Positions 54,821 to 64,000 are shown, counted from the stretch's first letter. The stretch is 64,000 nt of DNA from an uncultured Saprospiraceae bacterium (GCA_937924035.1 CALDTK010000083.1:8116-72115); one strand, 5' to 3'. Notes: generated by a model not told the origin, from the sequence alone. Numbers and translations are program-made.

Positions 54821-54850
54821 AAAGAAAGCATTGTCCTCAATGCTTTCTTT
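54821..54850 (-). terminator. terminator-like hairpin downstream of the unknown operon (could act on either strand)
   Basis: AAAGAAAGCATTG-tcct-CAATGCTTTCTTT, a perfect 13-bp inverted repeat with a GCATTG core flanked by A- and T-tracts. Lies 110 nt after the stop at 54961. In minus orientation it is followed by TCTTAC. Confidence 0.5.
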
Positions 54851-54960
54851 GATTGTCTGTATGCCTTTAAAACGTCGTAGCTGCGATGGGTCGTTTTTTA
54901 GCACAGTCTCTGATAAGCATGACTCTCTTACACATTTGCCTTGAGGTTCTATAATTTCGT

Positions 54961-56469
54961 CTAAGGTTTGCTCCCGTCATCAATGAATTCATTCTTGCAA
55001 TACTCGGCTGTGGTTTTTTCATTGCAATAAACATTGTCCAGGAAAGACCTTGCAGCTACTCTTAATAATCCGACTTCTTTACCTGACAAGACGCGTTGGT
55101 GACTTAGATCGATGAGACTGATCAATTCGCGTGAGGTTTTTTCGAATTGTTTTTTCCTCTTCTTATCTTTAGAGCTAAACGCAGCTACATCCTTCTTAAG
55201 ATCATTGAGTAGCTGACCAGTATAACGATGCAAGACGGTCGTAATATTCCGGTTTGGTTTCGTAGATTCTTGAAAGAGATACTGTAAATTGGTCTCTTGG
55301 GATTTCTTTTCTTCCGGCCCTTTACCCAGAAAAGGAAAGTATTGGCGATAATCCAGCGAAAACGCGATTTTTTTGTTTGCTACGGCATCGCATTCCTTGT
55401 TATTCCATTGAGCAAGCACATCAAGAAACGCCGTCGCTTTTTGCGAAACTTTTTTAACTTTGGGTTTTAATAACTTTGTCTCCTTAAACAGAACTACCTC
55501 ATCGTATCCAAATTGGGCAGCGTCCGGTTTAGTGGGTATTACAAAGCGATCGAGAGGTTTATACTTCTTATTTTTTGCAGTGAGCTTGTTGAAGGTGTGG
55601 CTTACTTTTAATGCTCGCATAAGCTTTTCTTCAGGAATTACCTTATTACCTGTTCCCATTAATGTGCGGTCGCTTGGGTATTGCCTTACAAATGCGGCAT
55701 TGGTAAGTAATTGTACCTGACCAAACGGCAGCTTCCGGCGTGCGATTGTACCCTTTATATCACTACCAAGTATTGACCCCAGATGGTTAGACATAAATCT
55801 AGCGCTTGCTACATTTGCTGGTACTTTTTTCCTCCCTGCGCCAACTCCTGAAATATTCTTAAGTTCCATCTCGTAGATCTTTTTTTGCTGATCGTCGAGA
55901 ATATTGCTTGAGATCATTGTATCAATCATTTTCTCAGGCCAAAACTCATAACCATAAATGAAATCAGGAGTCACAGATGATTTGATTTCGTAGGAATAGA
56001 ATTTGGGTTGCAAAGTATTATCAAGTATATTATGTCTAAAATTCTCTGCTTGCAGGGCTTTCGGAAAATTGTACTGGCCGACGACGTGAACCGACGGATA
56101 AAATTCGCGGGTTCCGAAGAATGAAGGTAAACGCAACTCTTTCATTTTAAATGACCCGTGAGCGGTGCCATGATACAAGCGACGAAAATCTGTCCAGCGC
56201 GCAAGCATCAGACCGTAAGGAAAGCTGTCTCGATAACGCGGGTCGAGTTCTGCCCCGAGCCGACAGTCATGTAGCCGTGGCCCGGTTGTCGAAATCATTG
56301 CCAGGTATTGTGCAACAGGGTGTTTATCAGTAAAAAATCCGTGTTTAACTTCGGATGCGCTAGATTCTTCTGTTATTCCAATTGCAATAGCAAAAGACAA
56401 TGCAGCTGACATATTAATCAAAGTGCTATTAACGCATCGCCTGTTAGTTTTGTTTTGTCCGTTCAGCAT
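54961..56469 (-). CDS. hypothetical exported protein (502 aa), last gene of the unknown operon
   Basis: ATG with GGAG 6 nt upstream, embedded in the end of the preceding gene. N-terminal basic region plus hydrophobic stretch MSAALSFAIAIGI. Lys-rich patches (KKYKP, KPKVKKVSQK, KDKKRKKQFEK). C-terminal C-x8-C (CNEKTTAEYC). No family recognised. Confidence 0.7.
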   Translation of the reverse strand: MLNGQNKTNRRCVNSTLINMSAALSFAIAIGITEESSASEVKHGFFTDKHPVAQYLAMISTTGPRLHDCRLGAELDPRYRDSFPYGLMLARWTDFRRLYHGTAHGSFKMKELRLPSFFGTREFYPSVHVVGQYNFPKALQAENFRHNILDNTLQPKFYSYEIKSSVTPDFIYGYEFWPEKMIDTMISSNILDDQQKKIYEMELKNISGVGAGRKKVPANVASARFMSNHLGSILGSDIKGTIARRKLPFGQVQLLTNAAFVRQYPSDRTLMGTGNKVIPEEKLMRALKVSHTFNKLTAKNKKYKPLDRFVIPTKPDAAQFGYDEVVLFKETKLLKPKVKKVSQKATAFLDVLAQWNNKECDAVANKKIAFSLDYRQYFPFLGKGPEEKKSQETNLQYLFQESTKPNRNITTVLHRYTGQLLNDLKKDVAAFSSKDKKRKKQFEKTSRELISLIDLSHQRVLSGKEVGLLRVAARSFLDNVYCNEKTTAEYCKNEFIDDGSKP

Positions 56470-63151: not shown

Positions 63152-63293
63152 CTATTCCTATTCGACGAATGCTGCCGATTACCGCAATAATTTTGTCTTT
63201 TAAGGGCATTCCAAACGAACAATCCTTCGGTTCACTTGTTTTGTCCTTCTTGGTTTTACTGCATCCTGTACTAATCCGTAAAAATATAGATCT

Positions 63294-64000
63294 TTACTTC
63301 GGAACCATGTCGTCTGACACAGCTACTTGAGGGTACAGGTTGAGCAGGCCGATTCTCCCTTCACCTTCCAACATCATATTATTGTTGTAATCGATCAACA
63401 CGGGTGTTACCCCGCTAGCCAGTTCACCGTCTCCACGCCGGAAGTACAGATCGTTAACAATAGTGTTTTCGAAGCTATGTCCACTAGGTTTTGCCTGTAC
63501 ATCGAACCGATGGACTTCATATCCACCATTTGGTGAATGGAGAACCACAAAGCTGTTATTTTTTTTCTTCTCTTCAGATTCGAGTGAGTTTGTGGGGCTG
63601 CTGAAGAATGAAATGTCGGTATACAAATCCTTGCGACTGGTTGCAAACTTACGTGTTAATAACTTAGTCGGCGCAAACTGATTCGCAAAGGTTGCATCAT
63701 GAGTCACCGTACCCCGATTTTCCCTGTAATCCCAAAGTTGTACTTCCTGAATAATTTTCGAATCGTCAGACTCTTTTGTCCAGATAACTCCGATACTTCT
63801 GCCATCCGGACTAAAATCGAACTCCTGTACTTCCCAGCCAGGCCTCTGAAAAGTCGTAATTAAATTACCCGTTTCAATAGGTGAGTGCACCCAATCTATG
63901 ACTGTAGCACCCGGGTTATTAACTGATTCAGTACCAGAGAGTGCGAGCTTAAAGTTTTCAGGGTGCGAAATAAAAGACACATGTTCCAGGTTGTCCACAG
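63294..64000 (-). CDS. C-terminal part of a larger hypothetical protein with a PD40/TolB-like beta-propeller motif (start lies beyond the window)
   Basis: The ORF is open to the window edge. FDFSPDGRSIGVIW resembles PD40 (FSPDG) repeats. Same strand as the five genes downstream of it, and 142 nt upstream of the 678-aa gene. Confidence 0.6.
   Translation of the reverse strand, partial: VDNLEHVSFISHPENFKLALSGTESVNNPGATVIDWVHSPIETGNLITTFQRPGWEVQEFDFSPDGRSIGVIWTKESDDSKIIQEVQLWDYRENRGTVTHDATFANQFAPTKLLTRKFATSRKDLYTDISFFSSPTNSLESEEKKKNNSFVVLHSPNGGYEVHRFDVQAKPSGHSFENTIVNDLYFRRGDGELASGVTPVLIDYNNNMMLEGEGRIGLLNLYPQVAVSDDMVPK

Follow-up and report, generated by a model that had tools for sequence, protein, structure and literature searches.

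A six-gene operon of candidate exported proteins in an uncultured bacterium includes a rare four-gene module with no recognised family

A 64,000-nucleotide (nt) stretch of DNA from an uncultured bacterium (GCA_937924035.1, CALDTK010000083.1:8116-72115; the window) ends in a block of six minus-strand genes, g1 to g6, for which an earlier inspection of the sequence (the sequence-only reading) had proposed an undescribed exported system. Every one of the six open reading frames (ORFs) was present where that inspection had placed it. The first, g1 (63294..>64000), has its C-terminal 234 codons inside the window, and is followed by g2 (61115..63151), which encodes 678 amino acids from the first ATG or 668 from the start at 63121 used by gene callers and public assemblies. 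Downstream lie g3 (59531..60892; 453 amino acids), g4 (57549..59534; 661 amino acids), g5 (56481..57449; 322 amino acids, or 339 if a TTG at 57500 is used) and g6 (54961..56469; 502 amino acids). Gaps recomputed from these coordinates agree with the operon-like spacing that had been claimed, being 142 nt between g1 and g2, 222 nt between g2 and g3, 48-99 nt between g4 and g5, and 11 nt between g5 and g6; the stop of g3 and the start of g4 share a 4-nt ATGA overlap, by which the two genes are predicted to be translationally coupled. The G+C-rich hairpin reported in the 222-nt gap was located on the minus strand at 61072..61095 (CAGCGCGGAT-TAGT-ATCCGCGCTG; 10 pairs, of which 7 are G-C). This hairpin has no U-tract on the transcribed strand and may serve in attenuation or in the stabilisation of mRNA, which would raise g2 output over that of the downstream genes. 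The terminator-like hairpin described 3′ of g6 was likewise confirmed, as a palindrome of 13 pairs (13-bp stem; 54821..54850) to which no strand is assigned and which is likely a bidirectional terminator closing the operon. Three metagenome contigs (L001-L003; loci outside the window are numbered with the prefix L) match the block at 99.85-99.99% identity, with all six ORFs intact and near-identical across the three independent assemblies and only two coding differences among the copies, both within g4. The six genes make up an intact operon. One of these contigs (L001, 99.85% identical) extends 1.7 kb beyond the window edge and supplies the full g1, of 637 amino acids (L001 474..2387), with its own signal-peptide-like N-terminus; upstream of it the sequence is non-coding apart from a doubtful ORF of 62 codons.

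An N-terminal hydrophobic segment was found in all six products, with a best 12-residue Kyte-Doolittle mean of 2.05-2.80; this mean is the hydrophobicity heuristic by which export was called, as distinct from a trained signal-peptide predictor. The same hydrophobicity scan revealed no further transmembrane-like window in any of the six. It is thus plausible that all six products carry Sec-type signals without another membrane anchor and are exported, as had been proposed for the whole set, g1 included. Signal-peptide-like N-termini were also seen in almost all of the proteins examined from related gene clusters. A lipoprotein assignment was considered for g3, which in the window has the sequence LLSC/LAC, but was rejected since the lipobox cysteine is not conserved in g3 homologs. 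Within the operon there is no gene for an ATPase or for an inner-membrane component, and none recognisable as belonging to a secretion system.

The genomic contexts of g2 relatives, both close and more distant, were fetched, and all of their ORFs were scored with family hidden Markov models (HMMs) built here. The order g2-g3-g4 was found to be kept in ten other loci (L005, L006, L012, L013, L014, L015, L016, L017, L021, and L022), with synteny holding down to E-values of about 1e-10, and nine of the ten also have one or two g1-like genes, none being detected in L017. Identity to the relatives is 52-56% for g2 and 27-36% for g1, g3, and g4, which by this comparison makes g2 by far the most conserved component. 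Because the g2-g3-g4 order recurs in these ten loci, the arrangement is not accidental. The notion that there is no system at all, and that the block is a chance run of unrelated hypothetical genes or the decaying cargo of a mobile element, draws on the insertion sequence (IS) debris that adjoins the block, on g5 and g6 being orphans, and on the fact that no function can be assigned; however, it is largely refuted by the recurrence of the gene order, and with six ORFs intact and near-identical in three independent assemblies and g3 and g4 coupled through a 4-nt overlap we consider it scarcely credible. The sequence-only reading had taken the six genes as one unit and had looked to their co-occurrence in other genomes. 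That expectation was borne out for g1 to g4, which are conserved together, but failed for g5 and g6, which have no counterpart in any related cluster. Judged on sequence, g1 to g4 are therefore a very rare conserved module that spans phyla.

The closest g2 relatives that could be identified, at 52-56% identity, come from two metagenome-assembled genomes (MAGs), one of the Akkermansiaceae and one of the Verrucomicrobiia, and Candidatus Eisenbacteria are distant carriers of the g2 domain. All loci that could be placed are from Verrucomicrobiota or are planctomycete-like, with L022 having planctomycete-type PSCyt2/PSD1 neighbours. A scan of metagenome contigs for further loci returned two, one of them already in the set, such that the module is very rare there as well. 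A phage or viral origin was rejected, as the module was found in no viral contigs and no match to PHROGs was obtained. As a separate observation, the planctomycete-like cluster of L022 (10001-21030) has two extra uncharacterised exported proteins (595 and 624 amino acids) before its g1-like gene.

Family assignment was attempted for all six proteins with Pfam-A 2025, NCBIfam 20, PADLOC 2, and PHROGs 4. Only sub-threshold noise was returned for g1 to g6 (E ≥ 0.001, well under curated cut-offs), and when the same scans were applied to 37 proteins of the related clusters, they were of no use for the core families. No PADLOC model for anti-phage defence was matched by any product, and no member of the CsgG/E/F, FapF, usher, chaperone, or pilin families was found in the window or in the related clusters. 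The PDB was searched with profiles for g1, g2, g3, and g4 and with single sequences for g5 and g6, and for the six families returned nothing apart from one Asp-box motif, in g4 (E 0.016). The sequence-only reading had recognised no characterised family among most of these proteins and had called for profile and structure searches; profile, sequence, and fold searches all ended without a match, and homology to characterised systems was not found, with the fold search covering g2 alone.

The signature protein of the module, g2, is composed of a signal peptide, a mature N-terminus beginning SDA... that is invariant among the close g2 family, an N-domain of about 350 amino acids, and, at the C-terminus, beta-sandwich domains of fn3/Ig-like type. 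Among 5.8 billion clusters, a word-indexed search returned 10 relatives at E ≤ 1e-3. When 1.84 billion representatives were searched exhaustively with a profile, 116 distant clusters were obtained at the same threshold (clusters defined at 50% identity), most of them about 600 amino acids long and with the N-terminal ~350 residues as their common part. When 72 members of this superfamily were scanned against Pfam, no recurrent domain was found, and the scan turned up just a single protein with fn3 repeats and a single TPR protein. The C-terminal half of g2 resembles fn3/Ig domains in that (i) residues 498-576 match a protein built of fn3 repeats; and (ii) the C-terminal sandwiches (residues 550-670) were modelled with a predicted local distance difference test (pLDDT) score of 84-90. 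The full-length AlphaFold model in which they stand, derived from 10 sequences, was poor overall (pLDDT 67, predicted template-modelling score [pTM] 0.42), and a fold search with it gave generic beta-sandwich matches only (template-modelling score [TM] 0.08). The N-domain (residues 40-420) was modelled by AlphaFold2 with an 86-sequence alignment to a pLDDT of 87.2 and a pTM of 0.76, and its comparison with the PDB by Foldseek gave no fold match (best E 0.1, TM ≤ 0.18). A confident model without a PDB match indicates that the g2 N-domain is a new fold, as far as prediction goes. Across both structure libraries (PDB and BFVD) its single neighbour is A0A7S7YF07, an uncharacterised protein of Medusavirus stheno T3 in BFVD (E 7e-5, TM 0.29).

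The two g2 models disagree over residues ~232-298 (window ~62258-62453), most of all at 255-291, this stretch being a long beta-hairpin with the 10-sequence alignment and two helices (residues 255-291) with the 86-sequence alignment. Near it lie G354, G358, and G362 (GxxxGxxxG), which are invariant in the close g2 family. These features bring to mind a beta-pore-forming multi-component toxin (aerolysin, MACPF/CDC, or binary-toxin B) diverged beyond detection, in which g2 and possibly g3 would be the pore. The switch between hairpin and helices is suggestive only, but long 20-residue strands flank the stretch, a conserved aromatic YWF patch accompanies the invariant glycines (neither being strong evidence), and the system appears to be secreted and multi-component, with enzyme-like partners. 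Counter to this idea, the hairpin form comes from the low-confidence model alone, the amphipathic stretch at 255-291 is short and mostly polar with no clear transmembrane hairpin, Foldseek with the pLDDT-87 model detected no pore-former above noise, and no Pfam toxin family was matched, including aerolysin/ETX-MTX2, MACPF/CDC, and binary-toxin B. We regard a diverged pore-former as improbable.

The C-x8-C loop noted earlier at the ends of g2 (C656/C665) and g6 (C482/C491) is present in both proteins, but it is not a feature of the family, with none of six g2 homologs having it, and it appears to be specific to this lineage. Two further arrangements of the g2 domain were observed. A truncated g2 duplicate of 283 amino acids stands directly upstream of the full-length g2 in two loci (L013 1608-2459 and L020 1049-1900). 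Candidatus Eisenbacteria MAGs carry, in tandem, four proteins of 590-760 amino acids that are paralogous in the g2 N-domain (L011 3839-11768; L010 7614-15854), with further unannotated exported proteins on their flanks and no g4-like gene detected; by its gene content this array is a different architecture on the same g2 domain.

Of the other core families, g3 is probably related to the g2 N-domain as a distant paralog. Alignment of g3 with the g2 superfamily profile by hhalign gave a probability of 79% (E 1.6e-5, 195 columns), the common motif being KYWVPGRMRV..G.EFSLVKF, and g3 opens with the g2-type motif [FYW]Y.P...R[FV] ... P/S.F..[LV].K[YF].LV ... GG. The g1 family is marked by a conserved N-domain of about 125 amino acids (g1 residues 32-157; L001 567-944), which also heads a Pfam-annotated WD40 propeller protein in L016 (17061-18467; hhalign 94%) and resembles a targeting or docking domain that is specific to the module and joined to varied C-terminal parts. 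The FSPDG motif that had been recognised in the truncated g1 was confirmed in the C-terminal part of the protein and is partly conserved in the closest homolog. It is an FSPDG-type blade motif as in the WD40/PD40 (TolB-like) propellers, and a weak Utp21 WD40 match falls on it ('fefspdgr'); the C-terminal part of g1 is thus possibly a beta-propeller, and the WD40 fusion in L016 fits this idea without proving it. However, no WD40/PD40 match in Pfam and no PDB match were obtained for g1, and unlike the case for known propellers, the homology seen for g1 is confined to the N-terminal 125 amino acids, outside the putative propeller. The g4 protein has a conserved C-terminus ending in DGLYGFIYVE with a single Asp-box-like motif, YSLDGGEVW, whose match in the PDB profile search was to a sialidase and weak (E 0.016). 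In most clusters a further family, X (260-390 amino acids), is encoded between g2 and g3, and in L006 and L014 it is fused to g3; family HMMs found no X gene in the window block or in L022. The possibility that g1, g4, and X are g2 paralogs as well was rejected or not significant by hhalign, which also found no relationship between g4 and g1, and these are held to be separate families.

The last two genes, g5 and g6, appear to be orphans found only here. In the word-indexed search of 5.8 billion clusters g5 found only itself. The idea that either gene is a displaced X gene was rejected (hhalign 0.1-0.2%), and neither matched DUF5636 (PF18686) at E ≤ 1. The fifth gene had been proposed to encode an exported kinase-like enzyme, on the strength of a motif pair, DNKPEH followed 24 residues on by KIDHG, that resembles the D-x-K-P-x-N catalytic loop and DFG of Hanks-type and atypical kinases. 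In g5 both the Asn and the Phe positions of these motifs are His, unlike in Hanks-type kinases. Beyond this pair the proposal found no footing: no kinase family was matched in Pfam even at E ≤ 1, and when g5 was aligned by hhalign to a profile built from three Pkinase domains the probability was 0.3%, so that a Hanks kinase is not supported. Because the periplasm is without ATP (PMC11032199), any kinase activity of an exported g5 would need to be exerted within a target cell. The g6 protein is basic, with 79 K+R against 52 D+E.

The sequence-only reading had seen no regulator gene. This is true of the window, and of the 1.7 kb beyond it, but copies of the module from the Planctomycetota-Verrucomicrobiota-Chlamydiota (PVC) bacteria often adjoin an extracytoplasmic function (ECF) sigma factor and a Ser/Thr kinase. 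Directly upstream of the module, L005, L006, and L014 each encode an ECF sigma factor together with a Ser/Thr kinase that bears a TPR or WD40 array, as in the ECF sigma/Ser-Thr kinase pairs of Planctomycetota and Verrucomicrobiota, the association here being positional only; L022 has an adjoining kinase-TPR gene and L012 a WD40 protein. Membrane Ser/Thr kinases of PVC bacteria typically carry periplasmic WD40, TPR, or FGE-sulfatase domains (PMC11032199). The genes distal to the core differ among the loci. DUF5636, which is listed beside VgrG in Dyella japonica (PMC6653060), was found in L005 and L012 only; a YopT-like Peptidase_C58 in L014 (E 7.5e-7, above the Pfam cut-off); a Peptidase_M15 in L016; and an FGE-sulfatase type in L013. 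Two further families without annotation are also among the distal genes, and g5 and g6 occupy the distal end of the window block.

This neighbourhood bears on a reading of the module as a periplasmic complex for envelope maintenance or stress response, which in PVC bacteria would be a regulon target of the ECF sigma factor and Ser/Thr kinase and would act on the cell's own envelope by remodelling of peptidoglycan or the outer membrane. ECF sigma/kinase genes are adjacent in 4-5 of the 10 loci, M15 peptidase and FGE-sulfatase-type genes are among the neighbours, and the products have signal peptides only, with no sign that they exit the periplasm. We nevertheless think an envelope-directed role unlikely, in view of the extremely rare, patchy, and cross-phylum spread of the module, which is unusual for housekeeping envelope functions, the lack of a regulator in the window or the 1.7 kb beyond, and the C58 and DUF5636 neighbours, which better fit an offensive role.

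The reading that we favour, at a probability of roughly 35%, is that g1 to g4 form a Sec-exported hetero-oligomeric core that works with accessory or effector proteins that are interchangeable. Once exported by Sec, g2, g3, and g4 would assemble with the g1 protein, without ATP, into a hetero-oligomer located in the envelope or extracellularly, and g2 would be the major subunit of the complex. The distal operon genes would swap between lineages (g5 and g6 here; DUF5636, C58, M15, FGE-sulfatase, or uncharacterised families elsewhere), and their products would most likely be accessory enzymes or effectors that are carried, anchored, or delivered by the core, giving a layout of 'constant core plus variable cargo'. 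In PVC bacteria, the adjoining ECF sigma factor would probably control expression together with the membrane Ser/Thr kinase. The sequence-only reading had put forward a toxin, adhesion, or envelope-modifying apparatus, which is possible. Several points weigh against a hetero-oligomeric core with cargo. The assembly, the stoichiometry, and the cargo idea are all inferred, and structure prediction covers g2 only. The effector reading leans on four annotated distal examples, the other distal genes being heterogeneous, and no immunity-like genes are evident at the module loci. Each product, putative cargo included, appears to have its own signal peptide, such that dedicated delivery would not be required, and the crossing of the outer membrane by the proteins is not accounted for. 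The composition of the core is also not fixed, with X missing here and in L022.

Much of the same evidence can be read, by analogy with the logic of curli and Fap, as a structural assembly on the surface or outside the cell (a fibre, sheath, adhesin, or matrix), in which g2 would be the polymerising major subunit, g1, g3, and g4 minor or assembly proteins, and the distal genes passengers or modifying enzymes. Export of all products from an operon without an ATPase is consistent with such an assembly, as are the fn3/Ig-like C-terminal sandwiches of g2, its invariant mature N-terminus, its greater conservation (52-56% versus 27-36% for g1, g3, and g4), the hairpin after g2, which suggests a higher g2 output, and the occurrence of paralogous subunits. 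However, no similarity to a pilin, curli, Fap, usher, or S-layer family was found, an outer-membrane pore or anchor was not identified, and the recurrent toxin-type distal domains are left unexplained; we hold a structural assembly to be possible, if doubtful.

Comparison with known systems shows where the proposed core and its cargo agree with and depart from each. Like curli (csgBAC/csgDEFG) and Fap (fapA-F), the block is a compact operon with a Sec signal on every structural product, no ATPase, and an assembly that would take place outside the cytoplasm; unlike them, its proteins are larger (450-680 amino acids), with no recognised CsgG/FapF-type channel, no amyloid repeats, and no sequence, profile, or fold similarity. 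Secreted multi-component toxins (PA-like binary, tripartite Nhe/Hbl/Ahl, and Tc) likewise have co-encoded secreted subunits and lineage-variable enzymatic partners, a likeness drawn from the genes alone, whereas no match to Binary_toxB, ClyA-like, TcA/TcB/TcC, or any other toxin family was obtained for the block, and no fold match for g2. Polymorphic-toxin and type VI secretion system (T6SS) effector cassettes also place variable distal genes after a conserved core, some with domains from an effector context (DUF5636, C58/YopT-like, and M15). The module differs from these in that (i) no VgrG, PAAR, Rhs, Hcp, or T6SS genes are present; (ii) the variable proteins would be separate Sec-exported chains instead of the C-terminal toxin tips of polymorphic toxins, and immunity genes were not identified; and (iii) g5 and g6 match none of DUF5636, C58, or M15.

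The setting of the operon in the window was also examined. Beyond the palindrome 3′ of g6 are three frameshifted IS fragments, namely an IS256-type Transposase_mut fragment (52971-53329, plus strand), an IS21 IstB fragment (53397-53950, plus strand), and an IS3 fragment with rve and HTH_21 (53997-54802, minus strand); four IS families had been reported at this border, and no fourth was found. Within the IS3 fragment (window 54473 and below) L001 departs from the window to enter a gene with a CarboxypepD_reg domain (L001 11208-14566), and of the 14 differences in the part that the two share, 12 are in the IS3 fragment. The junction is either variable among strains or reflects an IS copy collapsed in assembly. 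On the far side of the debris, between it and a glutamate symporter gene, a plus-strand gene (51892-52749) encodes an Exo_endo_phos-family protein with a lipobox-like N-terminus (LILGAC) that may be a secreted nuclease or phosphatase.

The gene content of the window is gammaproteobacterium-like, with AcrB, AsmA, PldA, DcuC, arc genes, and DMSO-reductase-family enzymes. Its ornithine carbamoyltransferase (45035-46036) and AcrB-type pump (4252-7593) fall in clusters that are singletons, or nearly so, at 90% identity among ~15 billion proteins. On the evidence of its genes, the host is an uncultured lineage without a sequenced close relative. Low G+C in hand-counted samples had been offered as a sign of transfer, and the composition of the whole genes bears this out in part only. 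The G+C of the block genes is slightly low, at 0.39-0.46 compared with 0.467 ± 0.027 for 35 other genes of the window (z-scores -0.4 to -2.8, with g3-g6 at -1.5 to -2.8), but their GC3 and codon usage are inside the host range, which makes composition weak evidence. Nonetheless, a gammaproteobacterium-like host probably acquired the module horizontally, because the closest identified g2 relatives are verrucomicrobial (52-56%), a group to which the host lineage is unrelated, and the junction is IS-littered and strain-variable.

A fuller version of the reading with a constant core and swappable distal proteins can be framed from these results. The g1-g4 set might be an unrecognised ATP-independent post-Sec apparatus built on the new fold of the g2/g3 N-domain, a pore or scaffold that would deliver swappable effectors to other cells, with the atypical kinase-like g5 and the basic g6 as its cargo here, and that would have moved between Verrucomicrobiota/Planctomycetota and a gammaproteobacterium. 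Taken with all of these parts, such an apparatus is rather unlikely. Conserved clusters of uncharacterised, including exported, genes are common in metagenomic data from uncultured bacteria; as far as the tools used can see, the present module is undescribed and outside the known kinds of system. Its value is that of a well-delimited and testable candidate, the mechanism being what we infer from it. If the favoured reading is true, the module would be a new kind of exported multi-protein machine, of four co-inherited families of which one has an unrecognised fold, and would join the small set of ATPase-free systems assembled outside the cytoplasm. Its layout of a constant core plus a swappable distal gene would be like that of toxin-delivery systems, with no component common to known secretion, pilus, or toxin systems, and it would account for a recurrent neighbour of ECF sigma/Ser-Thr kinase genes in Planctomycetota and Verrucomicrobiota. 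Even if the function proves modest, the g2 N-domain superfamily, with its 116 clusters at 50% identity, is without a domain definition, and the synteny described here helps to define four new families.

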